A stretch of 64,000 nucleotides of DNA from Candidatus Staskawiczbacteria bacterium RIFOXYB1_FULL_37_44 (GCA_001822065.1 MHPJ01000015.1:7186-71185), one strand, 5' to 3'; counted from the stretch's first letter, positions 4,101 through 31,439 are shown. Made by a program: numbers and translations. The notes: a model not told the origin generated them from the letters alone.

Positions 4101-4404
4101 CCTTAGCAAGGCGGGTGATCGCTCCCGAAAGGGGGAGGAAAGTCCGAACACTTCCTTAAATTTTAAGGAGAAAGGTAGCGGGTAATTCCCGTCCACGGCA
4201 ACGTGCGAGGTGCGAACAGTGACGATACCCCCGCTTAGCGGGGGAGTGAAACGGCTAAATCCTTACCCAAGTGCAAGAACAAAGCCTATATCATTGTTTC
4301 ATCAGTGAAAAGGGTTAAAAGTAGTTCGCTTGACTCTGGCAGTAATGTCATGAGCAGACAGATGATCACATAATACAGAATTCGGCTTACAGCCTTGCTA
4401 AGGC
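4101..4404 (+). ncRNA. rnpB: RNase P RNA (bacterial, compact ~304 nt)
   Basis: Conserved GGAGGAAAGUCCGAACAC (CR-I) at 4134-4151 and ACAGAAUUCGGCUUAC (CR-V) at 4375-4390. Terminal P1 helix ccttagcaaggc (4101-4112) pairs with gccttgctaagg (4392-4403). Confidence 0.9.
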
Positions 4405-4467
4405 CTGCCTGCCGGCAGGCAGGCAACAAAAAAATCGTCTCAAACTTGTTGAAGGACGATTTTTTTG
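4404..4467 (+). terminator. Two hairpins after rnpB: a 20-nt perfect GC palindrome, then a stem plus T-run
   Basis: cctgcctgccggcaggcagg at 4404-4423. Then atcgtc...gacgat (4434-4460) followed by tttttt. Confidence 0.5.
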
Positions 4468-15106: not shown

Positions 15107-15459
15107 CGCGCTGTGGAGGAGTAGTACCTCGGCAGTCTCATACTGAAGCCCCGTGTAATTGGGGCGGATGCGTGACCCTATGCGGTAACGCGTAGTGGAA
15201 AATTCCTTAAATTGCTGGAAAATCATTAAGTTTTTCTCGCTACAGCATAATCTGAAAAGATAAGTGCGAATGCGTAAAAAGCAGAAAAAATTTGACAATC
15301 AGCATCCAAACCTACAAAATTTTGTGGGGAGGTTCAGAGACTATAATAGGAATCGCCATTCTAATAGGAATTAGAAGGGCGAATGGTATAGTCCATTCCT
15401 TTTAGAAATAAAAGGTATAAAAGAAGCTGCAGGCCCCCGTGCAATTCGGGGCAGCGCAA
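15107..15459 (+). tRNA. Initiator-type tRNA(CAU) split by a group I intron (exons 15107-15141 and 15424-15459)
   Basis: Joined exons fold as a 71-nt cloverleaf with anticodon loop CUCAUAA. C1xA72 mismatch, G2:C71, C3:G70 and A11:U24 match bacterial initiator hallmarks. D-loop AGUAGUA and T-loop UGCAAUU are atypical. Confidence 0.8.
15142..15423 (+). ncRNA. Group I intron (self-splicing ribozyme core)
   Basis: P-like aaattgctggaaaa (15209-15222), Q-like aatcagcatcc (15297-15307), R gttcagagactataa (15332-15346) and S aatggtatagtcc (15382-15394). The 5' exon ends in U and the intron ends in G (15423). Confidence 0.8.
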
Positions 15460-15519: not shown

Positions 15520-16218
15520 ATGGCAAACATAATAGAAAAAAATAAAGCCTTGAAATTAAGGCTTGAAGGAAAAAGCATAAGTGAAATTGCGGAAAAATTG
15601 AATGCTCCGAAAAGCACGATTGGTGTTTGGTGCAGAAATATAAAATTAGGGAAAAAACAGATTGAAAGACTGGAAAAAAGACAAATTTCAGGAAGCTATA
15701 AAGGCAGGATGAAATTTTTAGAAAAAATTAGAAGCGAGAGATTATTGCAAACAAAAAAATTAAAGCAGGAAGGACTAAACGATATTAAAAATATTACAAA
15801 GAGAGATTTGTTTGTATCGGGAATAGCAATGTACTTGAGCGAAGGAGCGACATCTGAAAGCAGTGAAGAAGTAAGTTTTACAAATTCAGATTTCCGAACG
15901 ATTATTTTTATGAAGAAATGGTTTATGGAGATTTGCGGAGTATTGGCAGATAAATTTGTAATTCAAATTAGAATCAATGAGGCGCATAAGAATAAAATAA
16001 AAAATACGGAAAATTATTGGTCAAAAATAACTGGTGTTCCATTGAGCCAGTTTACGAAAACTATTTTAATAAAAAGTAAATCAAAAAAAGTTTATCCAAA
16101 AAATAATATTTATTATGGAACGATTAGATTGAAGGTGAGACAGGGTACTCAGTTGAGAAGAAAAATAAACGGATGGGTTGAAGGGTTGTTAAAAAATATA
16201 AACAACATGTCGGGGTAG
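15520..16218 (+). CDS. Free-standing HTH plus LAGLIDADG-like homing endonuclease
   Basis: 232-aa ORF. N-terminal resolvase-type HTH (GKSISEIAEKLNAPKSTIGVW). LAGLIDADG_3-like FVSGIAMYLSEGA...VSFTNSDFRTIIFMKKWF...ENYWSKITGVP. Own TTGCAA-17-TATAAT promoter at 15463-15491. The stop codon lies inside the next tRNA. Confidence 0.55.
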   Translation: MANIIEKNKALKLRLEGKSISEIAEKLNAPKSTIGVWCRNIKLGKKQIERLEKRQISGSYKGRMKFLEKIRSERLLQTKKLKQEGLNDIKNITKRDLFVSGIAMYLSEGATSESSEEVSFTNSDFRTIIFMKKWFMEICGVLADKFVIQIRINEAHKNKIKNTENYWSKITGVPLSQFTKTILIKSKSKKVYPKNNIYYGTIRLKVRQGTQLRRKINGWVEGLLKNINNMSG

Positions 16219-16300: not shown

Positions 16301-16379
16301 GCGGGCATAGTCCAGCCTGGTTCAAGACGCCTCCCTGTCACGGAGGAGATCGGGGGTTCAAATCCCCCTGCCCGCGCCA
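16301..16379 (+). tRNA. tRNA-Asp(GUC), CCA encoded
   Basis: Acceptor gcgggca/tgcccgc, anticodon stem-loop cctcc-ctGTCac-ggagg, canonical T-arm ggggg-ttcaaat-ccccc, discriminator g, then cca (16377-16379). Confidence 0.9.
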
Positions 16380-17984
16380 CTGTGAACGAACAGAGTCTAA
16401 AAGCTCTGTTTTGTTCGTAAAATGGCCTGTTTTTGTTGGTTCTAACCTTAAATAAGCCCGTTCCAATGCGGGATAGTTATTTATGATTGGTTGAAACCAC
16501 TCATTTGGTTCAATTACCAGTTTTCCCTCTTGGATAACTGGCCTTTGGCCTAAGGTCATCAGTATTTCCTTTTTCAGTTCTAACCCTCCTTGCTCAAACC
16601 TTATTCTGGCGTAAGTTGCGAAAGTAAAGGTCTTTTCTGTGAGTTCCAGCCATCTTTCTGCTCGGCTCTCGGTTTCATTCACTTTTTGTCTAAGTTGGGC
16701 AATTTTAGCTTTTAAGTTATTTTTTTCTTTAAGAAAAGTTTCGTCATCAATCAAAAGGCGATACCTCATTTTGGTTAATTCATCTAATTCGGTTTGCGCT
16801 TGGGCTAATGCTTTCTGTTGCGTTTCATAAATTTTGCTCCTGTCCTCAATTTCCGTATCATTCTTTTCGTTTAAGTCCTCTAATGCCCAATTTAGAAATT
16901 CTGGGAGTATGGTGTATTTACCAAGCTCATTATCAATTTGCTCCTCTAAATTTTGTTTGGTTAAAACTTTTTTTTGCGAACACTTAATATCTTTACTTCT
17001 TCTGGTGCAATAATAATATGTGAAGGTTTTTATTTTGCCAGTGCCTTTTATAAGTTTTTCTTTTTCAATTGCAGTAAAGAAACATCCGCACTCTGAACAG
17101 CGGAGAGAACCAGTAAAAGCAAAGTGATGTTTTCGTTGTCTTGGTTTTCCTTTTCTCCCAAGAAGCATCTGAACTCTGTCATATTCGTCAAGAGTTATCA
17201 TTTTTGGGTGTTTGCCTTCGTATTGCATCCTTACTTTTCCATATTCAAAAAAACCAGTATAAAAAATGTTGTTAAACATTTTATAAATTCCCGTTCTTGA
17301 TAACGGAACTCCACCAGTCCTTTTTGTCTTTCTTGTTCTATACCCCCATTGATTATTTGCGATGTCTAAAATTTGTGGCGGGGTATAGTTGCCCGTAAGC
17401 ATTAAGTCCCACATTTTTCTAACTAACGGAAATCTTTCGGGGTCTATTGAAATGTCATTATCGCCCCTATCTTTAATTTTGCTGTTTAGATAACCTTGTG
17501 GCGCAGTAGTCGGCAACCATCCTTTTGCCAGTTTGCTATCAATGCCCCTTTTAACGCTTTTTCTCAAATCCAAAATAAACTGGTTGGCCGAGCCAGTTTC
17601 AACATTAAAGAGAATTACATTGTCGTCTGGGAGATATTGCCTGTCTATCGTCTGAATTGATTTAATAAGTCCTTGTTGCAACATCCAGCTTAATTTACCG
17701 CTATCAATAGGGTTTCGGGATAGTCTATTTATCTGCCAACATAGAATACCGTTTGCTTCACCGTTTTCAATTCGCCTGAGCATTTCGTCAAAAAGTGGAC
17801 GGTTGTTTGGTTTTTTGGCAGACTTTGACTCTGTATATGTTTTTTTGATGGTTATATTCAAATCTCCCGCAAGTTGCCTTAACCTGTTAAGCTGGTCATC
17901 AATTGATTGAATTTGTCTATCCTCGCTTTCAGAAGATTTACGAGCATAGAGAAAATATGTAAGTTTATTGTTTTCTTTTTCCAT
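16338..17984 (-). CDS. Large serine recombinase/integrase no. 1
   Basis: 548-aa ORF. N-terminal YARKSSESEDRQ..SIDDQ resolvase catalytic domain, a Cys4 zinc-ribbon recombinase domain (CSECG...YYYCTRR) and a coiled-coil region. The last 14 codons and the stop read through the antisense strand of tRNA-Asp. Confidence 0.9.
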   Translation of the reverse strand: MEKENNKLTYFLYARKSSESEDRQIQSIDDQLNRLRQLAGDLNITIKKTYTESKSAKKPNNRPLFDEMLRRIENGEANGILCWQINRLSRNPIDSGKLSWMLQQGLIKSIQTIDRQYLPDDNVILFNVETGSANQFILDLRKSVKRGIDSKLAKGWLPTTAPQGYLNSKIKDRGDNDISIDPERFPLVRKMWDLMLTGNYTPPQILDIANNQWGYRTRKTKRTGGVPLSRTGIYKMFNNIFYTGFFEYGKVRMQYEGKHPKMITLDEYDRVQMLLGRKGKPRQRKHHFAFTGSLRCSECGCFFTAIEKEKLIKGTGKIKTFTYYYCTRRSKDIKCSQKKVLTKQNLEEQIDNELGKYTILPEFLNWALEDLNEKNDTEIEDRSKIYETQQKALAQAQTELDELTKMRYRLLIDDETFLKEKNNLKAKIAQLRQKVNETESRAERWLELTEKTFTFATYARIRFEQGGLELKKEILMTLGQRPVIQEGKLVIEPNEWFQPIINNYPALERAYLRLEPTKTGHFTNKTELLDSVRSQWRGQGDLNPRSPP

Positions 17985-17987
17985 ACA

Positions 17988-18058
17988 CCTTAAAGGGACA
18001 TCTGGTCGCCCAACTCGTTATCCCGAAGGATGCGTTATTGGCAGATGCCCCTTTAAGG
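17988..18058 (-). promoter_or_regulatory. Inverted repeat in the leader of recombinase no. 1
   Basis: ccttaaagggacatctg (17988-18004) and cagatgcccctttaagg (18042-18058). 17-nt arms with one mismatch, starting 4 nt upstream of the start codon. Confidence 0.35.
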
Positions 18059-18121
18059 CAACAACGCAACCATAAAAAAATTCGGGACAATAATAAGTTA
18101 GGCGACAATTTAATTATAACG

Positions 18122-19252
18122 CTAATTTTTAATAAGGCAAGTGTCATCTGGCTTCATAATTTTGAAATCAACTAATTGCGTTCTGCAATCGTCAAAAACT
18201 TGTTTTAATGTGAAAGACGGTAGGGAGTATTTACTTATCAATTCTTTTATTTTTTCATCGGCCTTAGCTCGTTGTTGTCTTGTGTAAAATTCGTCTGATA
18301 TGAGCTTTAACTGCTGTGAGCCTGCTTGTTGTGTGGCCAAGCACCTGCCGAGCCAAGTATATGCGTTTTCAAGGGGCATATTGGCTTGCTTGGTTCTCTT
18401 GAAAAATTCGTGTATTGGGAGCAGGGGCGTATCCATTGCCCTAATGTTTAATGTGTTATTGATTTTATCAAAACTTTCTAAAAGTATGTCTTGGCATAGT
18501 TTGTCGTTGAACACTTCTGCAAAGTGTCTTTCCTGTCCGTAAGTGCCACCAATCCTTGTTTTAAGATGCCTTTTGAGGGTATATCTGTTTTGGTAGGTTA
18601 TTTCCATACGAATTATCTTGTCTGGGAGTTGGCCGTGTTTTAATTTAATGGCTATGTCTTTTTCTGTCCTATTCTTGGCATTAGCTATTATTTCAGCTCC
18701 CTTATCATACATTTTCCAGCTAACTTGTTTGTTATAAATTCTACCACAGAAACCGAACCTGTCGCTTTCTGTGTAAAATGTATCTTTTCTTTTGTTATAA
18801 TTCTTACCTATATCTAAAAAGGGTATGACTTTAAGATATTCAATAGGGTAGCCATAGTTTTGCGAGAGTATAAAGTTAAACGAAAAAGCTATGTTTTTGA
18901 TGTTGGCGTAATCCAGCATTTCTTTTTTGATTGGCGACCCCCTAAAAATATAGCAGAGTTTATCATAAAGAGCGTCCGTAAACAGATTTTTATCAGTTTG
19001 GCTAATGCCGTAATAATTGGTGTTGTGCAGTATTTTGGGAGCTGAAAATTCTATGTCTGTGCTTACTGTGTATAATCCTGATTGTCCTTCGGCCTTTTTT
19101 ACGGTAATTCTTGGCAGATAAGCGCCGAGCGAGGAGTCTGGGTTGAAGATATACTTTATCCTACCTTCGCTTCGGCTTGCCTTAAAAAATTGTAAGTTTT
19201 TGTCGGGAATATCTAACCTTTCTATCTGCAAAGTGAGAGTGTCTATCATCAT
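18122..19252 (-). CDS. Putative replication initiator (Rep_trans/phage CRI-like)
   Basis: 376-aa ORF. GRIYNKQVSWKMYDKGAE and IIRMEITYQNR segments resemble rolling-circle Rep_trans family motifs recalled from memory; not verified. Confidence 0.4.
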   Translation of the reverse strand: MMIDTLTLQIERLDIPDKNLQFFKASRSEGRIKYIFNPDSSLGAYLPRITVKKAEGQSGLYTVSTDIEFSAPKILHNTNYYGISQTDKNLFTDALYDKLCYIFRGSPIKKEMLDYANIKNIAFSFNFILSQNYGYPIEYLKVIPFLDIGKNYNKRKDTFYTESDRFGFCGRIYNKQVSWKMYDKGAEIIANAKNRTEKDIAIKLKHGQLPDKIIRMEITYQNRYTLKRHLKTRIGGTYGQERHFAEVFNDKLCQDILLESFDKINNTLNIRAMDTPLLPIHEFFKRTKQANMPLENAYTWLGRCLATQQAGSQQLKLISDEFYTRQQRAKADEKIKELISKYSLPSFTLKQVFDDCRTQLVDFKIMKPDDTCLIKN

Positions 19253-19260
19253 AAGCAGAA

Positions 19261-19485
19261 TTACTTGGTTGTAGTATTACTCCCTTGCTTGGAAGACGGC
19301 TCATCGGCTTTGTTTAGGCGCTTTTGCAATTCTTGGTATTCTTTTTCAGTAATTGGCCTGTAAACCAACTGAACCATACGAACCAGCTTAGCGCCTTTTT
19401 CATAAGCGTCTTCTTTACTTAACTCTTTGCCAAAATGCTTTTTATAAAGAGCTTGAAATTTTGCTATCCTTTCTTCAGACAACAT
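19261..19485 (-). CDS. Hypothetical small protein (74 aa)
   Basis: ORF packed tightly between neighbouring same-strand ORFs. No recognisable motif. Confidence 0.45.
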   Translation of the reverse strand: MLSEERIAKFQALYKKHFGKELSKEDAYEKGAKLVRMVQLVYRPITEKEYQELQKRLNKADEPSSKQGSNTTTK

Positions 19486-19489
19486 ATGA

Positions 19490-19777
19490 TTAGTTGCTGT
19501 AAATGCGGTTTTTTAACATCTTTATATTGTCAAAGAACGCACGAGCTTTTATTTCAAGTTTATTAGCCCAGTAATCGTTAACGACCTTTTCTATGCCAGC
19601 CCCAAGATAGAATGAGAATTTAATCTTACGAGGATTAGTCCTGTCTAATGAAAAAAGTTCAAACCCAGCCGTAATTAGCGAAGCAGATACGCCCAAATCA
19701 TAAGTGCTTAAGAACCCATTGTCTGAGGTAGCGTTTTTATTTTTAGGTAATTGATTTTTTGATAATTTTTTGGTCAT
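19490..19777 (-). CDS. Hypothetical protein (95 aa), DUF5659-like
   Basis: The pattern YDLGVSASLITAGFELFSLDRTNPRKIKFSF resembles small phage/mobile-element proteins. Low certainty. Confidence 0.45.
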   Translation of the reverse strand: MTKKLSKNQLPKNKNATSDNGFLSTYDLGVSASLITAGFELFSLDRTNPRKIKFSFYLGAGIEKVVNDYWANKLEIKARAFFDNIKMLKNRIYSN

Positions 19778-20086
19778 ATAATTTATGTTAAAATTTCAAA
19801 AAACCAGACAAAAAAACCAACAGTTATTTACTGCTGGTTTTATATTGTGAGCTTATGTGGAAATGAAAAAGCCAAAACAACAAATACCAGTCTATTAAAC
19901 AAACTGTTATTCATTGTCTTGGCTTCTTAGCTACCCATAGAACGGGTAGATTACCTAAAAAATCTTGAACAAGGCTCGCATTATGTCAGACCCATAAAAG
20001 GGGTAAGCCCATAAATTGATGCAAATTTTTGATTGATTTTAAGAACTTTACCTTATTATACTTTATTTAACTGCGCTATGTCAAGT

Positions 20087-21088
20087 TTATTTAACGGGAG
20101 TGAAACCAAAACGATTTTTTATTTTTTGTTTTTTTCTCTTTTCTAACTCCTTTTTAATTTCGCTGAGGGGTAATTTTTTTGTAGTCATAAATTTTATTTT
20201 TCCATTTTTATCTATGCTGAAGTAGTTTCTTTTTCGGCATTTATAGCACACTCTAAATTTACGGACACGAAAATCATTTAGATAGTCAGATATTTGTTTT
20301 TCTTCAGTGAGGTTTTCTTGTAGGAAGTGTCCACAACTTGCGCATCGCCAATCTGTATCATTATTTTTTTGCAGAAATAAACTAATCCTTTTTTGCAACG
20401 ATGTATTGGTTAGTTTCCTTATTTCTTCTTCTAATTTTTTAATGGGGTCTGCGATTATTACGAAACTTTTTGGCACTGCCGATACGCCCATTATTTGCGG
20501 TCTTGGCAGGTCTTTCCATTCAACATCTGGCTCATCGTCATAAAGTATTTTTATATTGCCAGAATAATCTGCTATCCAAGAAGCAACATCTAAATACTTA
20601 TTATCTAAATCGGAAAACTCAATCATTCTTTTTGGAAGGAAAACCTGAAAAGAGGCGAGTGCTTCAAGAACATAATTTAGTTCCTTTTTCTTTTTATATT
20701 CTTGGGGTATTTTATACAGTTTATCTTTTGCGATTTCTATAAATTCAATTAGCTTGTTTTTTGTCAGATAAAGTTCAATAAAATCGTGTGAAGAATAGTC
20801 ATATTTATCTTCTTCATTTATAAATTTGATTGCGCCCCTGTATTCAAGCCTCATCAAGGACTCTATCAAACTACTGTCTGATAAATCATAAATATCTTCT
20901 TTCCCTGATTTTAGTATTTCAGAAACATCTGCCCCATCTAATTTTATGTAATTATTGCTCAAAAGTATGTTTGGCTTTTCAGTGATAATTTTTAACAGCT
21001 TTTCTGCCACAAAAAGGTTTTGATTTTCAATCGCTTTTTTTTGCATATCAATATAATTTTTATTGTAATTTTGCCTTATTTTTAACAT
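20087..21088 (-). CDS. Hypothetical protein with C-terminal zinc ribbon
   Basis: 333-aa ORF. WRCASCGHF...VCYKCRKRNYF Cys4 motif near the C-terminus. No other recognisable domain. Confidence 0.55.
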   Translation of the reverse strand: MLKIRQNYNKNYIDMQKKAIENQNLFVAEKLLKIITEKPNILLSNNYIKLDGADVSEILKSGKEDIYDLSDSSLIESLMRLEYRGAIKFINEEDKYDYSSHDFIELYLTKNKLIEFIEIAKDKLYKIPQEYKKKKELNYVLEALASFQVFLPKRMIEFSDLDNKYLDVASWIADYSGNIKILYDDEPDVEWKDLPRPQIMGVSAVPKSFVIIADPIKKLEEEIRKLTNTSLQKRISLFLQKNNDTDWRCASCGHFLQENLTEEKQISDYLNDFRVRKFRVCYKCRKRNYFSIDKNGKIKFMTTKKLPLSEIKKELEKRKKQKIKNRFGFTPVK

Positions 21089-21221
21089 ATTTAGGCCACT
21101 TTTTCAATTATGGCTTTAAGTTGCGGACTTTATCTTTTTTTAATTTTAAGATAGTATAAATATAACAATTTAATAATGAGCCTAACCCTTATGAGTTCTG
21201 AAATTTATAAGGTATGGCACA

Positions 21222-21359
21222 AAAACGGTTCAGGCCATTAAGCTCTCAGTCAGAGCACCTGAACCATCATATTCCGAAAGGTATATGGGTGTCGCAAGAC
21301 ATCGCTGGCTGGGAGCTTTATGTTTCCAGCGAGCGAAGGCATAAATAAAACGGTTCAGG
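21222..21359 (+). promoter_or_regulatory. Structured leader of the type III mod gene with three mutually complementary 8-13 nt elements
   Basis: aaaacggttcagg at 21222-21234 and again at 21347-21359 (abutting the ATG at 21361). Complementary cctgaacc at 21258-21265. Nested hairpins gctct-cagtc-agagc, a GCAA-loop stem, and cgctgg...ccagcg. Confidence 0.4.
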
Positions 21360-21360
21360 T

Positions 21361-23028
21361 ATGCCAAATGAAAAAGAACTTCTTGAAGAAGTTAAATTTC
21401 TTAAAGAAGAAATAAAGAAAATAAAACCTAAAAAATACGGCCTTCTTTGGGAAACCAAAGACGAGGATGTTGTTTTGCAGTGCAAGGAAGAATTACCAGT
21501 TTTGATAGAAGATGACAAGAAGGAAATAAAAACAGATAAAAGCAAGCCCGTAAACATTCTAATTGAAGGAGATAATTATCACGCTCTTTCTGTTTTGAAT
21601 TACACTCATCAAGGAAAAATTGATGTCGTTTACATTGACCCGCCATATAATACTGGCGCAAAAGACTGGAAATATAATAATCATTTTGTTGATAATCTTG
21701 ATACCTATCGGCACAGTAAATGGATTTCAATGATGAACAGCCGTATTCGTTTAGCAAAGAAATTATTACAAAATACAGGGATTTTTATCTGTGCCGTAGA
21801 CCATTATGAACTTTTTAATTTAGGCCTGCTTTGTGATGAAATTTTTGGAGAAGAAAACAGATTGGGAGTAATTACAGTTGTCCATAAGCCAGAAGGAAGA
21901 CAGTTTGCAAATTTTTTTAGTCCTTCAAACGAGTTTATGCTGGTATATGCTAAAAATAAAAATTTAGCTAAATTTCAGGATGTTGTTTTAAGCGAGGGAA
22001 AATTAGAAGAATTTAACGAAGAAGATGAAAAAGGAAAATTCAAACTGCAAAATTTTATAAGGTTGACTGATGGAAAATATAGTTTAAGAAAAAATAAGCC
22101 CGCAGGATTTTATCCAATTTATGTAAGTAGTGATTTGATGAAATTTAGTCTTGAGAAAAAGGCCAACTATGAGGAGGCCTTACCAATAACAAATAAGGGG
22201 ATAGAGAGAGTATGGAAAACTTTTGGAGATACTTTTATGGAAAAGGTTGAAGATGGAGTTATTGTCGCAAAAAGAGAAAATGGAAAGTTAGTTTTATATG
22301 AAAAATTAAGGCCGAGCCAAGTATTGACGACTCATTGGATTGATAAAAAATATCACGGCTATCACTATGGCACGAAACTTTTAGAAGAAATTCTTGGAGA
22401 AAAAGTATTTGATTTTCCAAAATCGCTATATTTACTAATTGATATACTTAAAATTACGACCAACGAAAAAGCCATTATATTAGATTTTTTTGCTGGTTCA
22501 GGCACTACTGGACACGCAGTTTTGGAATTGAATAAAGCCGATGGTGGTAATCGGCAGGTAATTTTATGCACGAATAATGAAAACAAAATCGCAGAAAATG
22601 TTTGCTATCCAAGAATGAAGAAAGTTATTGATGGTTATTCATCTAACAAAGGGTTGGGCGGAAACTTAAAATACTACAAAACTGATTTCGTTGATGCTGA
22701 ACCAACAGACATAAATAAGAAAAAACTTGTTGATAAGTCAACAGAAATGTTGTGTCTTAAAGATGACTGTTTTAATGAAATAAAAAGAACTAAAACTTAT
22801 AGCATTTTTACCAATAATTGGGGCAAAAATTTAGGCATTATCTACGATGATGCTGGCATAGCTCCCTTCAAAAAAGAGGTGGAAAAGATAAACAAAAAAT
22901 TTATTGTTTATGTTTTTTCTTTAGATGAAAGCGCAAGAGAAGAAGAATTTGAAGATATAAAAAAGTTGGTTGAATTAAAGCCAATCCCAGCAGTTATTCT
23001 TAATGTGTATAAGCGTATATTCAAATGA
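21361..23028 (+). CDS. mod: Type III restriction-modification methyltransferase (Mod)
   Basis: 555-aa ORF. Motif IV VVYIDPPYNTG before motif I LDFFAGSGTTGHAV (beta-class) with a central variable region. Overlaps the downstream res gene by 4 nt. Confidence 0.9.
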   Translation: MPNEKELLEEVKFLKEEIKKIKPKKYGLLWETKDEDVVLQCKEELPVLIEDDKKEIKTDKSKPVNILIEGDNYHALSVLNYTHQGKIDVVYIDPPYNTGAKDWKYNNHFVDNLDTYRHSKWISMMNSRIRLAKKLLQNTGIFICAVDHYELFNLGLLCDEIFGEENRLGVITVVHKPEGRQFANFFSPSNEFMLVYAKNKNLAKFQDVVLSEGKLEEFNEEDEKGKFKLQNFIRLTDGKYSLRKNKPAGFYPIYVSSDLMKFSLEKKANYEEALPITNKGIERVWKTFGDTFMEKVEDGVIVAKRENGKLVLYEKLRPSQVLTTHWIDKKYHGYHYGTKLLEEILGEKVFDFPKSLYLLIDILKITTNEKAIILDFFAGSGTTGHAVLELNKADGGNRQVILCTNNENKIAENVCYPRMKKVIDGYSSNKGLGGNLKYYKTDFVDAEPTDINKKKLVDKSTEMLCLKDDCFNEIKRTKTYSIFTNNWGKNLGIIYDDAGIAPFKKEVEKINKKFIVYVFSLDESAREEEFEDIKKLVELKPIPAVILNVYKRIFK

Positions 23029-25211
23029 TTGAGCTAAAAGATTACCAAAAAAAAGCAGTAGAAAATCTGCATAGAAAAATAGAAAACTCTTTAAGGTCTT
23101 CTGATAATGAAGTAGTTATTTTTCAAGCCCCAACTGGTTCTGGTAAAACAGTGATGGTTTCTGAATTACTTAAGGAGCTTATTTCGGGCAGAGAAGACGA
23201 CAAAAAGTTTTCTTTTGTTTGGGTTTCCGTAAGGATGTTGCACGAACAAAGCAAAGAGAAATTAGAAGTTTATTATGAAGACAACAGGTCTTTGAAATGC
23301 TCATATTTTGAAGATTTGGAAGACAAAAAAATAGGCGAGAACGAAATCCTATTTATAAATTGGCACAGCATAAACAAAAAAGACATCAACCTTTTTGTAA
23401 GAGATAATGAGCAGGATAATAACTTAAATTCAATAATAAAAAATACAAAGGATGATAATAGAACCATTATTTTAATTATTGACGAAAGTCATCACACAGC
23501 AAACTCGGAAAAATCAAAAGAACTTATTGAAATAATTAGTCCAAAAATAACATTAGAGGTTTCTGCTACCCCGCATTTAACCGAAAACATAGCCGAGATA
23601 GAAAAAGTCCGCTTGTTTGATGTTAAGGCAGAAGAAATGATTAAATCTGAAATTTCTGTAAACCCAGAATTTCTTGATGCTAAAATCGGCACTAAAAGCT
23701 CGGACGAGGTTGTTATTGAGGAGGCCTTAAAAAAAAGAGAGGAGCTGGCCAAAATGTATAAAAAAGAAGGTTCAAAAATAAATCCTTTGATGCTTATTCA
23801 GCTACCAGATAATAAAGCTGGCCTGATTAGTAAGCAGGAAGGAGTCATCAAAATTTTAGGAAAAAAGAGAATAACAGAAAAAAACGGTAAGCTGGCTATC
23901 TGGTTGTCAGAAGAGAAATCAGACACCCTGCCCGATATAGAAAAAAATAATAGCGATGTTGAAGTCTTAATTTTCAAACAGGCCATTGCTCTTGGCTGGG
24001 ATTGCCCCAGAGCTTCAATTTTAGTAATTTTTAGGGAGTCTAAAAGTTTTACCTTTACAATACAGACTATTGGTAGAATAATGAGGATGCCCGAATTAAA
24101 ATACTATTCAAAAGAACCAGACCTGAATAATGGTTTCGTTTTTACTAATCTTCCGAGCATTGAGATAACCGAAGAATATGCTAAAGACTACATCACTATT
24201 TATGAGGCAAAAAGAGATAACAAAATTTATAAAGATATTTCTTTGCCATCCATCTATTTGAAAAGGCAAAGAGAAAGAACTCGTTTGTCGGGAGAATTTC
24301 TAAAACTTTTCTTGAAGGTTGCAGTAGAAAACGATTTGGCGCAGAAGGTTAATCTTAAACCAGTTAAGATAATAAGCCCAATAATAGCTGATGGCAAAAT
24401 TGTTGATATTGATAAGTTTGGAGAAATAGAACATAAGGGAACGATAAGCGTTGCGCTTAATGAAAAAGAACTACAAGAAAGGTTTGATAAATTCATTTTT
24501 CAAAACTGCACCCCCTATGCACCAGTTGATTCCAGCGACAGAATGAAAACTGCTTTATATCAATTTTTTAACCAAAAATTTAAGTTTGAAAAATACGACC
24601 CGAAAGTCCAAAGAATTGTTTTGGGGAAAGAAAATGTTCAGCTATTTGTAGATGCCATCAACTTGGCCAAAGAAAGATACAAAAAGGAAGTCATTGAAAA
24701 ATTAAGCGAGAAGAGGGAACTGCAAGAAACTCCCAGTTGGGAAGTGCCGATGTTTATTACCTATAACAGTAGATATAAGGCCGAGATACAGCCCCTTTCT
24801 GCCGTAAAACCCTTCTACACGGCCAAACCAAGCGAACCAGAGCGATTATTTATAGAGATGCTCAATGGTTCAAAGGAGATTAAATGGTGGTATAAAAATG
24901 GCGATACCGAGATAAAATACTTCGCCGTTTTGAGGGAAGATGATTTTGCTTTCTACCCAGACTTTATATTTCAGATGAAAGACGGCACTATTTGGATACT
25001 TGATACTAAGTCTGGCAGGACGGCTGAAACAAGTGATGCTAAGCCGAGAGCCGAAGCCTTACAAAAGTATATCAAGACTCAAAACAAAAAAGGTAAAAAT
25101 CTTATGGGAGGCATTGCGGTTTATGTGAATGGAACTTGGAGATACAACGATAACGAAAAATATGAATACGACCCGAACGACCTATCAAGCTGGAAAGTGC
25201 TTGGATTGTAA
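23025..25211 (+). CDS. res: Type III restriction enzyme Res subunit (SF2 helicase plus PD-(D/E)xK nuclease)
   Basis: 728-aa ORF. Walker A QAPTGSGKT, motif II IIDESHH, C-terminal nuclease-like FYPDFIFQMKDGTIWILDTKSG. Confidence 0.9.
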   Translation: MIELKDYQKKAVENLHRKIENSLRSSDNEVVIFQAPTGSGKTVMVSELLKELISGREDDKKFSFVWVSVRMLHEQSKEKLEVYYEDNRSLKCSYFEDLEDKKIGENEILFINWHSINKKDINLFVRDNEQDNNLNSIIKNTKDDNRTIILIIDESHHTANSEKSKELIEIISPKITLEVSATPHLTENIAEIEKVRLFDVKAEEMIKSEISVNPEFLDAKIGTKSSDEVVIEEALKKREELAKMYKKEGSKINPLMLIQLPDNKAGLISKQEGVIKILGKKRITEKNGKLAIWLSEEKSDTLPDIEKNNSDVEVLIFKQAIALGWDCPRASILVIFRESKSFTFTIQTIGRIMRMPELKYYSKEPDLNNGFVFTNLPSIEITEEYAKDYITIYEAKRDNKIYKDISLPSIYLKRQRERTRLSGEFLKLFLKVAVENDLAQKVNLKPVKIISPIIADGKIVDIDKFGEIEHKGTISVALNEKELQERFDKFIFQNCTPYAPVDSSDRMKTALYQFFNQKFKFEKYDPKVQRIVLGKENVQLFVDAINLAKERYKKEVIEKLSEKRELQETPSWEVPMFITYNSRYKAEIQPLSAVKPFYTAKPSEPERLFIEMLNGSKEIKWWYKNGDTEIKYFAVLREDDFAFYPDFIFQMKDGTIWILDTKSGRTAETSDAKPRAEALQKYIKTQNKKGKNLMGGIAVYVNGTWRYNDNEKYEYDPNDLSSWKVLGL

Positions 25212-25422
25212 GTTGAAAAAAGTTTAATAAAAAAGGGAGCAAACAAAAAGCTCTCTTTTTTCGTATAAATATAATAGGTAGTTAAATCGTTAATTTAATC
25301 TTCATATAATTAGGTTATTATTGTATATTACTGTATGATAAAGGAACTTGATTGTTTGGGGAAAATATGCTATTGACACTGTATCCATATTTTGAGAAAA
25401 TATACTAATCTAATATAACATT

Positions 25423-26136
25423 ATGGTATTCAAAGCTATCAAAACTAATCGTAGCCTTAGAATTCCACCGAAGAAGTCAGAGGCATATTTGTCTGACCTT
25501 TTTTTTATTTTATATTTTATATATCTCAATAAAGACAAAACAAGGAGCAAGATAAATATACAAAAAGGAATAGTATATGTTTTAGAAAAACTTTTGGAGA
25601 AGGGTAAATTAGACGATATAAAAGTATTCAACCTCCCATTTTATCGCTGGACATTCGGCGATTATAACAAATATATTGCTACGGGTTATTTGCCAGAGCT
25701 TATGGGTGGAAATCTCATTGATGAAGGCGAACAACCTTACAACTATAAAACAACAGAAAAGGCGAATAAATTTCTTGAAAGATTTGAAAAGGAAAATAGC
25801 TCTAATGAGGACTTATTATTGATAAAAGATATTATAAATTCTTATCCCAATGAAAACGACTTTTGGAAACCATTCAGGTTCTCTCACGAGAGGAAGGTAA
25901 AAGTTGGTGAACAAGAAAAATCAGTGGATAGCTTGGAAAAAGATGAAAGTATAGCAATAGCATATAATTCTAACCCAGAAGACGAAGACGGCTCTAAGTC
26001 AAACATAATTTCTACGAGCTATCTTTTGGCCTTAAATTCGTTATTGGAAGAAACGAAAATTGGACAACCGAAGGAGTCAGATTTAATAACATCTGAAATA
26101 ATAAGCAAACTCTTTGAAAGTGCGGGAATAGAGTAA
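25423..26136 (+). CDS. Hypothetical protein (237 aa), weak resemblance to Panacea/SocA-type antitoxin domains
   Basis: IQKGIVYVLEKLL...FNLPFYRWTFGDYNKYI resembles the KLQKLLY...F.AW.YGPV pattern recalled from memory. Acidic C-terminus. Uncertain. Confidence 0.45.
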   Translation: MVFKAIKTNRSLRIPPKKSEAYLSDLFFILYFIYLNKDKTRSKINIQKGIVYVLEKLLEKGKLDDIKVFNLPFYRWTFGDYNKYIATGYLPELMGGNLIDEGEQPYNYKTTEKANKFLERFEKENSSNEDLLLIKDIINSYPNENDFWKPFRFSHERKVKVGEQEKSVDSLEKDESIAIAYNSNPEDEDGSKSNIISTSYLLALNSLLEETKIGQPKESDLITSEIISKLFESAGIE

Positions 26137-26145
26137 AATATAGAT

Positions 26146-26592
26146 ATGAAACTCTTTCCTGCAAGTAATCTTGTTCTACTACACACGAGCTTTGAAGTGA
26201 AGCTCGCTTATTTATTTTGTCATAACCCAGAAGCCAAGAAGAATATAACGACCATATTAAAGAGGTTAGAAGAATTTTCAAAAAATCTAAATTTAGCCGA
26301 TGGCACATTAGAGGGAGTAAAAAGGTTCAAGGAGGCGCAGGGGTTAGAAATTTCACGAACTTTCCCTAAGCCATATTTTGATAGTGGTTTCCATAAAGCA
26401 GACGACCTCTTTTTTTATCTAAAAGAGCAAGATGTTAATGGTTATTGGGTAGTTGGTATAGACTTGTTCTTTCCACATCTTTTATCTGAACAGTCTTTGG
26501 CCGAAGAATTAAGGAGTTGCTCTTTTATGGGAGGGTATCCATCATCTAATGATTTAAGGTTCTGCGAAATATACAATATAACTTACAATTAA
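26146..26592 (+). CDS. Hypothetical protein (148 aa)
   Basis: ORF 9 nt downstream of the previous gene (likely co-transcribed). No recognisable motif. Confidence 0.45.
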   Translation: MKLFPASNLVLLHTSFEVKLAYLFCHNPEAKKNITTILKRLEEFSKNLNLADGTLEGVKRFKEAQGLEISRTFPKPYFDSGFHKADDLFFYLKEQDVNGYWVVGIDLFFPHLLSEQSLAEELRSCSFMGGYPSSNDLRFCEIYNITYN

Positions 26593-26669
26593 ATTAAGAA
26601 ACTGGTATTTGGCCTTTATTAGATAGGTCTGGGATGTAAATATACTCTTTTTGTTGTTGTATTGTGGTT

Positions 26670-28214
26670 CTAATAGTGTTCACGAGGTTGCGCAATAATA
26701 AAACTTTTTTCTTTTTTCCCGACGAAATCGTGGGCGGCCGAAATGGCCGCCCAGTGTTTTTGTGAGGGGAAATCCGTTCCGCTCGGCGCGCTGCGGCGCA
26801 CCTCGCGATTTGCCAAAACGAGGTTCAATCCGAAAATTTCTTTAGTAGCAGCCTTTTTATTCAAAAGGCTGCTTTCGTTTGCGGTTTTTGCTATGGTTTG
26901 TGCATAATTTATCCAATTTTGCATAGGTTCAACCCAGCCGAATCGCTTTTGTTCAAGAGTGTTGATTTTTTCTTCCAGCGATTTCTTTTCGCTTACCAGC
27001 TCTGATTTTTTGGCAAGATAAATTTCTCGTTCAACAACTTGGTCAAGGTACGAATCCAGAAGTCGCTGAATTTTAACAGAAATGTTTTCGATTTTTTCTT
27101 GCGCCTCTTGAACAAAAGCGGTGAAAGATTGGGCGGTTTCTATTTTGTCTTTTTCAAGTTTTTTATTTAACTCTTCGGCCCAATCTTTTTTCAAAGAAAA
27201 TTTTTGAAGCAAAGAGGAAATTTGTTTGTCTAAAATTTCTTGCCGCACAGGCGGTTCAGCGCATTTTATTGTTTTTGATTTTCTTGAACATCGGTAATAA
27301 ACATAATGGTGGACATTTCCATTTTTTTGTTTTTTGATTCTTTTTTCCGCAGTTATCATCATTCCGCAGGTTCCGCACCTCAATAATCCGCAAAACGCTT
27401 GCGGTTGGTTTTTACTGCTTTTTCTTATTTTTCCTCTTTGCTTTAAAATTTCTTGAACTTTATCAAAAATTTTCTTTGAAACTATCGGCTGGTGTTTGCC
27501 TTCGTATATTTCTTTGGTATAGCGGAACAATCCAACATAGAACGGATTTTGAAGAATAAACGAAACCCTATCTTTGTGGATTCGCTTTCCGGTTTTTGAT
27601 AATATGCCGTTTTGCGCCAAAAAGTTGGCGATATCTTCCAATCTACTTTCGTTTTTAGCGTAAAGCTCAAATGCTTTGCGGATAATTATACTTCGTTTTT
27701 TGTGAACCATAATTGATTTTGTCCGCACATCATTTATGTAGCCAATCGGCGCAAGCCCTGGATATTCTCCGCGTTTGGCTTTTTGGCGTTGTCCTCGTTT
27801 CGTGTTTTCGGAAAGCGAATCAATGTAGTATTTGCTTTGTCCGAAAGCGATGTTTAGCATAAATTTTCCCTGTGGCGTTGGTTCAAACCAAAATGTTGAA
27901 AATTTTAACGCTTGCAAATGCCCGCAGTCTACAAGATAAATTATTTTTCCGCCGTCAACAGAATTGCGCGCCAGCCTGTCAGGATGCCATGCCAAAATTC
28001 CGTTAGCTTCGCCTTTTTCAATTCGTTTTATCATTTCGTTGAAAATTGGTCTGCCCGGAATTTTGGCAGATTGTTTTTCAATTAACTCATCAACAATTTC
28101 TAAATTTTCCTTTTCGGCAAAATCGCGCAATTCAGCGATTTGGTCTTCAATAGACCTGACTTGTCGTTCTTCCTCATCTGTGGACTTGCGGGCATATAAA
28201 AAGAATTTTTGCAT
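26670..28214 (-). CDS. Large serine recombinase no. 2
   Basis: Start set to MQKFFLYARKSTDEEERQVRSIEDQ (ATG at 28214). Resolvase catalytic domain, zinc ribbon CGTCG...YYRCSRK, coiled coil. The last ~45 codons lie in repeat copy A. Confidence 0.9.
   Translation of the reverse strand: MQKFFLYARKSTDEEERQVRSIEDQIAELRDFAEKENLEIVDELIEKQSAKIPGRPIFNEMIKRIEKGEANGILAWHPDRLARNSVDGGKIIYLVDCGHLQALKFSTFWFEPTPQGKFMLNIAFGQSKYYIDSLSENTKRGQRQKAKRGEYPGLAPIGYINDVRTKSIMVHKKRSIIIRKAFELYAKNESRLEDIANFLAQNGILSKTGKRIHKDRVSFILQNPFYVGLFRYTKEIYEGKHQPIVSKKIFDKVQEILKQRGKIRKSSKNQPQAFCGLLRCGTCGMMITAEKRIKKQKNGNVHHYVYYRCSRKSKTIKCAEPPVRQEILDKQISSLLQKFSLKKDWAEELNKKLEKDKIETAQSFTAFVQEAQEKIENISVKIQRLLDSYLDQVVEREIYLAKKSELVSEKKSLEEKINTLEQKRFGWVEPMQNWINYAQTIAKTANESSLLNKKAATKEIFGLNLVLANREVRRSAPSGTDFPSQKHWAAISAAHDFVGKKEKSFIIAQPREHY
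26698..26832. repeat. Recombinase-3'-end module, copy A (inside the recombinase no. 2 CDS)
   Basis: ~135 bp, GC-rich, with hairpin gggcggcc-gaaat-ggccgccc and a GC-rich arm pair that is imperfect in copy A (ggtgcgc/gcgcgcc). Direct orientation relative to 30652-30783; inverted relative to 28395-28530. Confidence 0.85.
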
Positions 28215-28394
28215 AAATTTGTTTTGTTTAATTTTAATCAACTTAAATGGCCGCCCCGGTGCACTCAATCCAAGTTGCCTTGAACTGTCCGAGACGGCCA
28301 TTGAAAAAGACAACTTGTTCGACTGAGTGCAATTTTATTATATCACAGCCAGAAGAAAAGCAAAAATTCTTTTTATCGGGCAAAGCAAATACTA

Positions 28395-28712
28395 AACCTC
28401 GTTTTGGCAAATCGCGAGGCGCGCCAAAGCGCGCCGAGCGGAACGGATTTCCCCTCACAAAAACACTGGGCGGCCATTTCAGCCGCCCACGATTTCGTCG
28501 GGAAAAAAGAAAAAAGTTTTATCGTTGCGTATCTTTACGACGAAGTTAGAACCTATTTTGTAGAAAACTCCTAAAATTTCCCGCCCCGCCAGCTGGCGGG
28601 GCGGGCAGAAACAAAATCGGAAAAATCGGCTCGGGTGCAAAAAATTCTTTTGGGGTGTGGGGCAAAAGGAAATTTTTTGCGTCCTCGCCGCCGCGAAATT
28701 TTTTTATAATTA
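28395..28712. repeat. Left inverted repeat (copy B): recombinase-3'-end module plus ~180-bp extension
   Basis: Reverse complement of 30461-30776. Its plus strand keeps an open frame ...NLVLANREARQSAPSGTDFPSQKHWAAISAAHDFVGKKEKSFIVAYLYDEVRTYFVENS*. Contains a 26-nt perfect palindrome at 28580-28605. Confidence 0.9.
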
Positions 28713-28791
28713 GATACAGCCCCTTGATTTTTTGTTAAAAAGGGGTCAAACTTAAATAATAGGTTATTTTCAATAGGCAGGCGAAAGAACA

Positions 28792-29019
28792 ATGGAAAAT
28801 AAAAAAGATTTAATAATTGGTATAATTGTTTTGGTAGTTATAGGAATTAGCGTTCTCTATACTATTTTTACAGAACCCATTTCTAATAAAATCCCTACGG
28901 CTGAAGAGGAAAAGGCCTTAGAGAAAAAAATTTTGGATAGATATGGAAGTTGGGAAAACGCAGAATACCAAGCACAACAAAATGAACAGGAATGTTTTAA
29001 TCCACCACTTTGTAGATAA
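28792..29019 (+). CDS. Small membrane-anchored protein (75 aa)
   Basis: One TM helix (LIIGIIVLVVIGISVLYTIF) and a short soluble tail. First ORF of the repeat-bracketed cassette. Confidence 0.5.
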   Translation: MENKKDLIIGIIVLVVIGISVLYTIFTEPISNKIPTAEEEKALEKKILDRYGSWENAEYQAQQNEQECFNPPLCR

Positions 29020-29028
29020 CAAAAATTT

Positions 29029-29916
29029 ATGAAACAGTTTATAAAAATTTATATTTCTATATTCATTGGATTTTTTTTACCAACTCTCTTATTTTATTTG
29101 TGGATGGTCATTTTTGGTGGACGAGAAGGAATTAGTGTGGGCAAACTTTTTTATATGATCTCTATTTTTTCTGTTATATGTTCTGTTGTAATTGGTTCGG
29201 CAATGCTCCTCTTAAATATTTTCAGAAAGAAATTTAAAATTTATAAATGGGAAAGTATAATAATTTGGATTATCGCTGTTTTGACCCCGATAGCGGTTAT
29301 TAGTATCTCTGGTCAAAAGGGCATGTCTTTATCTAAAAATTTAGTTGGACAGTTTTTAGATATTTTATTCGGTGTATTTCTTAACACTCTTGTGTTGGCG
29401 ACTATATTTATTTTGCTTAATTGGTTGCACAAAAAATTAAAAATTAAATTTCCTCAATTATTAAATTTTAATAACACTTCTGTGAAAATTTTTTTAAAAG
29501 AAAACTGGTTCAAATTAATAATTTGCATAGCGATAGCCTTAATTGGTTTTTCTATTTTTTATTATTTTGTAGTTTTAGGAACGCAAAAAAATCAATCTTC
29601 TATAGAAGCGAAAGAGGAGGAAATAAGATTAAAACAAGAAAAGCAGTCAGTAGAATTTAATCAACAAAAAGAGGAAGAAACTGCGAAAAACTTAAACGCA
29701 GAAAATTTAGTTGGTTGCTTAAACACCGCAGAAATCAATCGTAATACAGATGTTAAATATTGGATTGATTGGGGAGACCCATATTGTAAACAATACAGCG
29801 GGGACGCGGGGCTGTATGGCCATTGCTTAGATGAGTTGCAAAAGAATATTGACAAAGTTAAAGCACAGGAGTCGCAGGCCAAAAATGATTGCTATAAACG
29901 ATACCCCCAAAATTAA
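29029..29916 (+). CDS. Polytopic membrane protein with C-terminal Cys-containing soluble domain (295 aa)
   Basis: About 6 hydrophobic helices, then a charged coiled segment and a Cys-containing tail. No recognisable family. Confidence 0.6.
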   Translation: MKQFIKIYISIFIGFFLPTLLFYLWMVIFGGREGISVGKLFYMISIFSVICSVVIGSAMLLLNIFRKKFKIYKWESIIIWIIAVLTPIAVISISGQKGMSLSKNLVGQFLDILFGVFLNTLVLATIFILLNWLHKKLKIKFPQLLNFNNTSVKIFLKENWFKLIICIAIALIGFSIFYYFVVLGTQKNQSSIEAKEEEIRLKQEKQSVEFNQQKEEETAKNLNAENLVGCLNTAEINRNTDVKYWIDWGDPYCKQYSGDAGLYGHCLDELQKNIDKVKAQESQAKNDCYKRYPQN

Positions 29917-29968
29917 GTCTAAAATTCAGTTTGTGCGGGAGAGATATATCTATAATCTAAAAAGATAA

Positions 29969-30463
29969 ATGATTTTATACCCAAAAGATTTTATAAAAGA
30001 AGTTTTAATCAAGGAAATAGGAGATATTGCTAATAAGCACGCTTATTTATCCTTTACTTTAATTTGTTGTGGAATTGAGTTTCTCGGAAAATGTTTAGAT
30101 ACTCAAGTCGAAGATTTTAATGAATATAAACAAAATAGTGGAGAGCAGTTTAAATGTGCAATAATTAAACTATTTCCAAATAAATATCATGATCATTGCC
30201 AATTGTTATGGCAAGGACTACGCAATGGATTAGTGCACGCAAACACGCCAAAATCTCAGATAGGATTATTTAGTAAAAATGATGAAATTTATTATAAAAT
30301 TTTGTATGAACAACACCCCGTTTTTGATAAAAAAGAAGATAAACTAATAATTGGAGTAGAATATTTTTATGACGATTTTGTAGAGGCGTGTAAAAAAATT
30401 TTAGAAATGGAGTTTTCGGCAGACAAAATGAATAAGCCCTTATTGAACACTCCATCAAAATAA
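29969..30463 (+). CDS. Hypothetical protein with HEPN-like Rx4H motif (164 aa)
   Basis: LLWQGLRNGLVHAN (R85-H90, nt 30221-30238) fits the RNxxxH HEPN ribonuclease signature. The stop codon is the first triplet of the right inverted repeat. Confidence 0.5.
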   Translation: MILYPKDFIKEVLIKEIGDIANKHAYLSFTLICCGIEFLGKCLDTQVEDFNEYKQNSGEQFKCAIIKLFPNKYHDHCQLLWQGLRNGLVHANTPKSQIGLFSKNDEIYYKILYEQHPVFDKKEDKLIIGVEYFYDDFVEACKKILEMEFSADKMNKPLLNTPSK

Positions 30464-30783
30464 TTTAAAAAAATTTCGCGGCGGCGAGGACGCAAAAAAT
30501 TTCCTTTTGCCCCACACCCCAAAAGAATTTTTTGCACCCGAGCCGATTTTTCCGATTTTGTTTCTGCCCGCCCCGCCAGTTGGCGGGGCGGGAAATTTTA
30601 GGAGTTTTCTACAAAATAGGTTCTAACTTCGTCGTAAAGATACGCCATGATAAAATTTTTTTCTTTTTTCCCGACGAAATCGTGGGCGGCCGAAATGGCC
30701 GCCCAGTGTTTTGTAAGGGGAAATCGTTTCCGCTCGGCGCGCTTTGGCGCGCTTCGCGATTTGCCAAAACGAGGTTCAATCCG
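30461..30783. repeat. Right inverted repeat (copy C): extension plus a degenerate recombinase-3'-end module
   Basis: Its distal ~175 bp differs from copy B at a single position, the centre of the palindrome at 30567-30592. The recombinase-homologous part has roughly ten substitutions and a 1-nt deletion that breaks the frame. Confidence 0.9.
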
Positions 30784-30842: not shown

Positions 30843-31439
30843 ATGGCTTTAAAACAAATTTTTGAATATGTATTTCCCCAAAAAAGATTTAACAGGGCGT
30901 TGATAATTTTGATTACATCAAATACTGCGATGGTTTTTGTTATAGGCTTGTTAACTCCTTTTTATGCGGTTTTTGTGCAGAAAATAGGAGGGAATATTGC
31001 TTCGGCCGGATTTTCATGGGCAGTTTTTTCAATTGTAGCGGGAGTTCTTACGCTCCTATTTGCTAAATGGCAACTCAAAGTAAAAGAACAAGAGCTATTG
31101 TTGGCTTTAGGATATTTAATCCGTGGATTAGTTTTTTTAAGCTATGCCTTTATGGGCAGTATTGCTCAATTAATATTTACACAAGTTCTTTGGGGTGTTG
31201 GAGCTGCCCTTGGAACGCCTGCTTTTGATGCCGTCTATAGTGCGCATACCAACAAGGAAGATTCAATAGTTCAATGGGGCCAATGGGAAGGTATCGCCGC
31301 TATAGCCACAGGATTAGCCGCTATCGTCGGCGGTATTTTAATTCAGGAGGTAGGATACCCGGTTGTCTTTATAGGAATGGCTGTTATATGCTTTTTGCTC
31401 GGAATATATATCTGGAAGCTTCCCCGGGAAGTTTTATAA
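30843..31439 (+). CDS. Six-TM membrane protein resembling the C-terminal half of an MFS transporter
   Basis: 198-aa ORF with about 6 predicted helices and an MFS-like loop pattern. Half the usual MFS length, so possibly a fragment. Confidence 0.55.
   Translation: MALKQIFEYVFPQKRFNRALIILITSNTAMVFVIGLLTPFYAVFVQKIGGNIASAGFSWAVFSIVAGVLTLLFAKWQLKVKEQELLLALGYLIRGLVFLSYAFMGSIAQLIFTQVLWGVGAALGTPAFDAVYSAHTNKEDSIVQWGQWEGIAAIATGLAAIVGGILIQEVGYPVVFIGMAVICFLLGIYIWKLPREVL

Follow-up and report, generated by a model that had tools for sequence, protein, structure and literature searches.

Here, we analysed a 64,000-nt stretch of DNA from Candidatus Staskawiczbacteria bacterium RIFOXYB1_FULL_37_44 (GCA_001822065.1, MHPJ01000015.1:7186-71185), referred to below as the window. 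Judging from its sequence, the segment 26691-30642 is an integrated mobile element of ~3.95 kb, belonging to a family of Patescibacteria (Candidate Phyla Radiation, CPR) whose sole conserved gene encodes a large serine recombinase (LSR). Comparison of related loci has shown that the attachment site of the element (attP) lies within the open reading frame (ORF) of this enzyme, recombinase 2, with the crossover just after the residues KSFIV and about 15 codons before the native stop. The original prediction, made on the window alone, had proposed that the 3' end of the recombinase gene is itself the recombination substrate, which agrees with the attP found within it and with the crossovers located in three repeat copies at 26690/26691 (A), 28529/28530 (B) and 30642/30643 (C). 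What the element is, where its attP lies and how the locus arose are, taken jointly, given a probability of about 0.8. The element comprises the following features:

26670-28214, minus strand: recombinase 2, an LSR of 514 aa counted from the ATG at 28214 (543 or 547 aa from upstream starts)
26691-26832, minus strand: copy A, the t segment (codons ~464-507 of recombinase 2), P arm of attP; attR-type junction with the crossover at 26690/26691
26731-26753, plus strand (the tRNA strand): terminator-like GC hairpin with T-run inside the t coding sequence; copies at 28467-28489 (minus) and 30683-30705 (plus)
28215-28394, minus strand: upstream region u of recombinase 2, with a TATAAT box as putative promoter recognised from sequence; conserved in locus L002
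28395-28712, plus strand: copy B, an inverted, complete spare attP, from repeat finding and alignment; counterpart in 104 of 129 related loci
28395-28529, within copy B: t, followed by the crossover at 28529/28530
28530-28574, within copy B: native tail n, with its stop codon at 28572-28574
28580-28605, within copy B: palindromic terminator, after which the distal segment d runs to 28712
28713-30460, plus strand: cargo cassette with ORFs at 28792-29019 (75 aa), 29029-29916 (295 aa, hydrophobic) and 29969-30463 (164 aa)
30461-30642, minus strand: distal portion of copy C, made up of inverted d and n; far element end with the P' arm, attL side; 1 difference from copy B over ~183 positions
30643-30783, minus strand: recombinase-homologous part of copy C, a frameshifted relic t of an older, decayed element; crossover at 30642/30643

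Repeat finding and BLAST within the window recovered all three predicted copies of the recombinase 3' end (A, 26691-26832; B, 28395-28712; C, 30461-30783). A and B form an inverted pair (26691-26825 versus 28395-28529; 135 nt, 96% (95.6%) identity, E 6e-59), B and C a longer inverted pair (28395-28712 versus 30461-30776; 318 nt, 96.5%, E 4e-149), and A and C a direct pair (26691-26832 versus 30643-30783; 142 nt, 92%, 1-nt gap), while no fourth copy of the module occurs elsewhere in the 64-kb window. Each of the two inverted pairs holds the crossover core or one of its arms. Copy B begins 180 bp upstream of recombinase 2 (ATG at 28214), copy C includes 7 nt more of the gene body than copy B does, and the local GC content rises to 0.5-0.6 over the module, compared with a background of 0.2-0.4. 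Alignment of the three copies showed 9 differences between B and C in the 135-bp recombinase-homologous part, including a 1-nt deletion in C, close to the roughly ten that had been counted, and a single difference over the distal ~183 bp, located, as claimed, at the centre of a 26-nt palindrome (28580-28605 / 30567-30592). The divergence jumps from 1/183 to 9/135 exactly at the crossover. The open frame ascribed to copy B was likewise borne out, its translation ending in ...KSFIVAYLYDEVRTYFVENS before the stop, whereas the live recombinase 2 ends in ...KSFIIAQPREHY. The locus is 100% identical across 5.5 kb in an independent assembly (L182), and the recombinase 2 protein is identical on 22 contigs from several samples; because the same sequence is present in independent assemblies, an assembly artefact is excluded.

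Recombinase 2 is identical to P0121, a protein of Candidatus Staskawiczbacteria, and matches the Pfam families PF00239 (Resolvase), PF07508 (Recombinase) and PF13408 (Zn_ribbon_recom), all above their cut-offs. The YARKST motif of the N-terminal resolvase catalytic domain is invariant in the family alignment, and the AlphaFold model places helices 343-390 and 396-426, which make up a long coiled coil, after the zinc ribbon. This is the resolvase/recombinase/zinc-ribbon set with long coiled coil of the serine integrases phiC31, Bxb1, A118/LI and SPbeta SprA. The aligned region matches SprA and the A118 integrase up to residue ~424, though distantly, and recombinase 2 is less than 28% identical to any annotated phage integrase. 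A homology search returned about 7,900 related proteins, from Patescibacteria wherever the source is named, and at least 589 family loci were counted among species-representative genomes. In a scan of IMG/VR, just two distant relatives (44% identity) were found, and a phage origin is therefore unlikely.

The C-terminal sequence FGSNLxLxNREAR..WAAL.AAHE..KSFIV is conserved as protein in each of the best 120 homologues, and the module is therefore a true gene 3' end and not a host repeat. After KSFIV, these homologues fall into two tail classes, namely a native tail (..LYxxxRTYFxxN, then the stop) versus strings resembling ERVTGIEP.., which are the antisense of a tRNA T-arm. The AlphaFold model is confident to about residue 474, and the predicted local distance difference test (pLDDT) score is below 50 for residues 474-522, covering the rest of t and the tail. 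Such low predicted confidence fits a C-terminal segment shaped mainly by constraints acting on the DNA. As a guide to the action of the tail, the model was set aside as uninformative over these same residues.

To locate the attachment site, 171 related loci from genomes and metagenomes were compared, of which the 129 with a complete recombinase 3' end were used for tail counts. The tail runs into a tRNA gene on the opposite strand in 92 loci, is native in 14 and is of another kind in 23; the swapping of C-terminal tails that had been suggested is thus real across the family. All 14 native-tail genes lie on short contigs (<5.4 kb) without host DNA. Among 33 loci with an adjacent tRNA, the repeat in most cases ends 4 nt inside the tRNA 3' end, the crossover core is usually TGGTG or TGGAG, i.e. 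the antisense of the discriminator and CCA, and 13 tRNA types serve as targets (Gly, Glu, Val, Lys, Leu, Ile, Cys, Thr, Tyr, Asn, Arg, Phe and Asp). In 11 loci the host|n, t|n and t|tRNA junctions, corresponding to attL, attP and attR, could be compared, and the sequence common to them at the crossover does not exceed 8 nt and is usually 2-6 nt long. A shared core this short is what a serine integrase produces.

Beyond the core, the tetranucleotide GAAC is found at +15 on the tRNA side, in the T-loop, in 26 of the 33 loci, and at +19 on the native side in 28 of them. This suggests that the enzyme reads the tRNA T-arm and that the P' arm imitates it, which would explain the use of so many different tRNAs. 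The fixed offset of GAAC resembles the shift between attP and attB half-sites that is reportedly seen in structures of the A118 integrase with DNA. As the comparison shows, integration joins the gene body and t to the antisense of the tRNA, replacing the last ~15 codons with arbitrary residues, and moves the native tail, the terminator and d (together n-d) to the far end of the element.

The comparison also identified copy B as a family hallmark. Of the 129 loci, 104 have the 3' end repeated in inverted orientation upstream of the gene, from codon ~464 on and at a median distance of 180 bp; where 600 nt or more of upstream sequence is available, only 6 loci lack this copy. Within a locus the arms have a median identity of 99.1%, whereas between loci the identity of this segment is just 51%; the arms therefore evolve in concert, and the comparison shows them to be kept near-identical by gene conversion. 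The upstream copies nearly always continue into an intact, in-frame native tail and terminator. In the relatives, the far boundary of the element, at a distance of 1.5-7 kb, is a second inverted copy of n-d that breaks off at the crossover. Read in the direction of the recombinase, the layout is host, n-d, cargo, inverted d-n-t, promoter region, recombinase (body and t), and tRNA. Close relatives of recombinase 2, in loci L001 and L002, sit directly on the 3' end of a tRNA-Asp gene; at L002, where copy B and the spacer are the same as in the window, the recombinase shares 94% identity with recombinase 2.

Two sister strains document exchange between the copies. L183 differs from the window at 7 positions over 5.5 kb, of which 6 fall within 30713-30745 in copy C and all match copy A, a cluster that by its pattern is a gene-conversion tract from A into C. 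The copies do interact, as the original prediction implied. The remaining change in L183, equivalent to 28592, makes the palindrome centres of B and C complementary. In L187, the recombinase, t and n are identical and the same neighbouring island (described below) is present, while from 28646 outwards d and the cargo are different, and the palindromic terminator differs as well (L187:1-260 versus 28600-28712). On this alignment, L187 is a cassette replacement with its breakpoint inside the repeat, indicating that the cassette is exchangeable within one population. Cargo also differs between relatives, and none of the three cassette ORFs of the window has a Pfam match. No conserved cargo gene, such as a directionality factor or a replication protein, was found; an Xre-type helix-turn-helix (HTH) protein occurs in 5 of 17 cargos and is absent from that of the window.

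The history of the locus was reconstructed from the junctions on both sides of the element. Between the element and the tRNA-Asp gene lies a second, unrelated island:

16301-16379, plus strand: tRNA-Asp (ARAGORN, Rfam), the original target (attB) of the stack of elements
16380-26690: recombinase-1 island, ~10.3 kb (Pfam, Rfam), with boundaries placed by inference
16338-17984, minus strand: recombinase 1, an LSR 33% identical to recombinase 2 that reads into tRNA-Asp
21179-21303, plus strand: LOOT RNA (Rfam RF03000, 76.8 bits), directly upstream of the type III methylase gene
21361-23028 and 23025-25211: type III restriction-modification pair, Mod and Res respectively, within the island (Pfam)

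The island ends in inverted GTTCAC/GTGAAC arms, and the last 7 codons of recombinase 2 (AQPREHY and stop) are read from its end. When the A side (...gttttattattgcg) is joined to the tRNA-Asp antisense (cgggcaggggg...), the product equals the L002 junction save for 2 single-nucleotide polymorphisms. We conclude that the recombinase-1 island probably integrated later between tRNA-Asp and recombinase 2. No inverted copy of its own 3' end was found for recombinase 1. With this island, the encoded CCA of tRNA-Asp is restored, whereas the recombinase-2-type junction has CAA (L001, L002). The island also encodes a DUF5659 protein, and the position of the LOOT RNA beside a restriction-modification operon is a link for an orphan RNA that is possibly worth attention.

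On the other side, the t of copy C holds most of the changes specific to a single copy, including the frameshift, and bases peculiar to C, only 4 nt away from the crossover, favour the attP core as the position of the joint. In L108 and L114, attL clearly borders on a relic t from another member of the family, as it probably does in L122. These junctions show that elements stack at one tRNA and suggest three insertion layers, which may be ordered as follows. An older member of the family would first have occupied tRNA-Asp; the recombinase-2 element would then have integrated at the junction of tRNA-Asp and the old t, creating copy C from its new n-d and the old t; the body of the older element would have been lost; and, finally, the unrelated recombinase-1 island would have entered the junction of tRNA-Asp and copy A, changing the tail to AQPREHY, destroying attR and leaving the element trapped. 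The suggestion that the copies are remnants of nested insertions therefore holds for the recombinase part of C and the outer flank of A, but not for copy B, which belongs to the conserved make-up of the element. Beyond copy C, an ORF at 30843-31439 encodes 198 aa matching the N-terminal half of the major facilitator superfamily (MFS) transporter profile, followed by short unmatched ORFs to ~34100, and recognisable host genes resume at 34169 with an RsgA GTPase. The stretch from 30843 to ~34100 may represent a decayed host gene or what is left of the older element.

As to the role of copy B, it may, tentatively and with much less confidence than applies to the identity of the element, be regarded as a spare attP with the native 3' end, from which homologous exchange restores an intact gene, while the arms allow exchange of cargo. 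It is more speculative, and on balance doubtful, that the spare inverted attP and native 3' end constitute a control device needing no separate directionality factor. In such a device, the recombinase would be locked or re-directed once integration had stripped off the conserved C-terminal peptide. Homologous exchange with the spare copy would then give the enzyme its native tail back and make it fit for excision again, and the inverted arms around the cargo would let elements swap cassettes. An isomer arising by integration through copy B could be unstable because it retains a fully active enzyme, in which case the tail would be the control element.

Several observations weigh against the proposed identity, history and role of the element. 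The isomer expected from integration via copy B is seen in none of 110 loci, which the model does not explain, and the A and B arms of the window are, at 95.6% identity, below the family median. No conserved directionality factor was found in the cargo. The native-tail contigs are all shorter than 5.4 kb and end inside repeats, fitting either a free circle or tandem arrays, and since only assembled contigs were available, a free circle, excision and inversion were not directly seen. To our knowledge, integration at a site with an old t as its second half (attR-like) is not standard for the characterised serine integrases (phiC31, Bxb1, A118), and homologous recombination is an alternative for that step of the history.

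The geometry of the repeats permits inversion, from which the original prediction had derived a reversible A x B or B x C switch. In a self-acting switch of this kind, the recombinase or RecA would flip the gene body between A and B, alternating junction-encoded and native tails and hence a locked and a competent enzyme. The inverted arms kept by 104 of 129 relatives at a median identity of 99%, the native tail held in frame by the B copies and the sequence exchange demonstrable in L183 would all suit a switch, and the missing integrated native-tail isomer would fit a short-lived state leading to excision. However, the flipped isomer, with the tRNA beside the upstream copy, occurs in 0 of 110 related loci, and the contigs of this genome that cross the region all have the gene order of the window, with no flipped arrangement among them. 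In addition, 14 of 14 native-tail genes lie on short contigs without host DNA, and gene conversion alone suffices to explain the identity of the arms, so that we consider such a switch unlikely. Inversion of the cassette between B and C would also leave the local sequence unchanged, the arms being symmetric. The predicted A x C excision circle fared better in part: its 3.95-kb product would match the gene content and order of L005 and L086, which have a native tail, consist of recombinase, repeat and cargo, and end within the second repeat copy on both sides. Yet these contigs would also fit tandem arrays, since the n-d of a newer element would restore the tail of the older gene. The partial inverted repeat copies at both ends of L005 and L086, in the same layout as the A x C product, could also be read as a free replicon like the yeast 2-micron plasmid, i.e. 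a 3.6-5.5-kb circle in which inverted repeats split recombinase and cargo and recombination leads to amplification or isomerisation, with the integrated copy simply inheriting the repeats. The likeness to the FLP/FRT system lies in a presumed circle divided by two long inverted repeats that hold the site of the recombinase; in contrast to the present element, FLP is a tyrosine recombinase and the 2-micron plasmid replicates autonomously. A free replicon is quite improbable, given that no replication gene is conserved in the cargo and that IMG/VR holds just the two distant relatives, and we know of no serine integrase that recombines attP with attP.

Two further explanations were also weighed. 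Were B and C functionless leftovers of truncated recombinase genes from nested insertions, the frameshift and the many copy-specific changes in the recombinase part of C would be expected, and this part is indeed such a relic. For copy B, however, the boundary at codon ~464, the orientation and the spacing are kept in 104 loci at 51-94% protein identity and with near-identical arms, which makes pure debris very improbable. It is harder still to credit that the module is a host element, either a repetitive extragenic palindromic (REP)-like sequence or a noncoding RNA (ncRNA), used as an attachment site, although its high GC content and hairpins speak for this alternative. All three copies in the 64 kb are tied to the recombinase, the segment is conserved as recombinase protein in more than 100 homologues, the actual target is the tRNA end, and no Rfam family matched, with only chance miRNA-type matches at E up to 5. 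An integrated serine-integrase element with attP inside its recombinase gene remains the reading that we prefer.

On the tRNA strand, a GC hairpin and T-run lie within t, ~40 nt past the tRNA end, and are followed by a second hairpin. The GC hairpin had been noted in every copy, and a terminator scan detected hairpin and T-run and scored them as terminator-like in all three copies of the window. In 53 non-redundant loci, both hairpins are kept by compensatory changes; pairing is found in 77.6% of cells versus 33-47% when the partner is slid, with changes on both sides in 15 of 16 pairs. This conservation suggests that transcription of the tRNA ends at the hairpin and T-run, which would keep antisense transcripts out of the recombinase gene, and the element would in this way supply a terminator to a tRNA that has been cut off from its own. 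In d, a G-rich motif, GGGGTGTGGGG, is located at 28652-28662 with an inverted copy in C; in several relatives (L011, L015, L022, L047, L108 and others among the loci noted) it stands in the loop of a GC stem (GGCGCGGCGGAA...TTCCGCCGCGCC), and other relatives carry GGAGGGGTTTTAGGGGAGG at its position. From its location at the inner end of the repeat, the motif could be a promoter or a binding site.

Compared with characterised systems, the family shares with phage serine integrases the short attachment sites with few common bases and, as is said of A118, the offset of the attP and attB motifs. Unlike them, it has attP in the ORF of its own enzyme, targets the CCA ends of many tRNA genes, keeps a second inverted attP in the element and has no conserved directionality factor visible in the cargo. 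The 'suicidal' integrases of the Sulfolobus spindle-shaped virus (SSV) type, from archaeal viruses and plasmids, also have the site within the integrase ORF, and integration into a tRNA gene alters their gene (PMC7253208). However, these are tyrosine recombinases that are split into two inactive parts, whereas the serine recombinases of the present family stay full length, lose only the last ~15 codons and, unlike the SSV type, keep a spare copy of the lost codons in the element. Mycobacteriophage BPs and its relatives, whose immunity depends on integration, have attP within a coding sequence, and integration changes the C-terminus and the behaviour of the protein (PMC4557955). There, the altered gene is the repressor and the integrase a tyrosine recombinase, while here the altered sequence is that of the recombinase itself. 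Islander-type islands integrate at tRNA 3' ends, restore the tRNA end and stack in tandem at one tRNA (PMC4383910), but they employ tyrosine integrases and duplicate tens of tRNA bases, in contrast to the mere discriminator-CCA core shared here. Literature searches returned no paper on the recombinase-2 family, only such conceptual neighbours. We found no description of a serine integrase that combines an attP in its own ORF, the CCA end of many tRNAs as target, a terminator for the tRNA and an inverted attP kept by gene conversion. The architecture of this serine-integrase element is unusual and conserved.

The genomes of Patescibacteria are tiny, and few of their mobile elements have been described, whereas the present family is very common among them. 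It is a natural test case for the control of serine-integrase activity or direction by a C-terminal peptide, and a compact integrase that reads the conserved tRNA T-arm is a possible landing-site tool for genome engineering. If the control device outlined above were real, the element would amount to a minimal, self-contained serine-integrase vector for the universal T-arm and CCA end of tRNAs. In many loci (L006-L171) the contig ends 150-530 nt upstream of the recombinase gene. Assemblers probably break at the inverted n-d repeat, making it a practical cause of the fragmentation of metagenome-assembled genomes (MAGs) of Patescibacteria. For annotation, this explains the frequent contig breaks just upstream of genes labelled "recombinase family protein" in this group.

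Elsewhere in the window, a group I intron match (RF00028, 69.5 bits) lies at 15156-15415 on the plus strand, where no obvious host gene was called; it is situated just upstream of an HTH ORF (15520-16218) and a tRNA-Met/tRNA-Asp pair. A bacterial class A RNase P RNA at 4103-4405 on the plus strand (129 bits) places the window in a bacterial chromosome.

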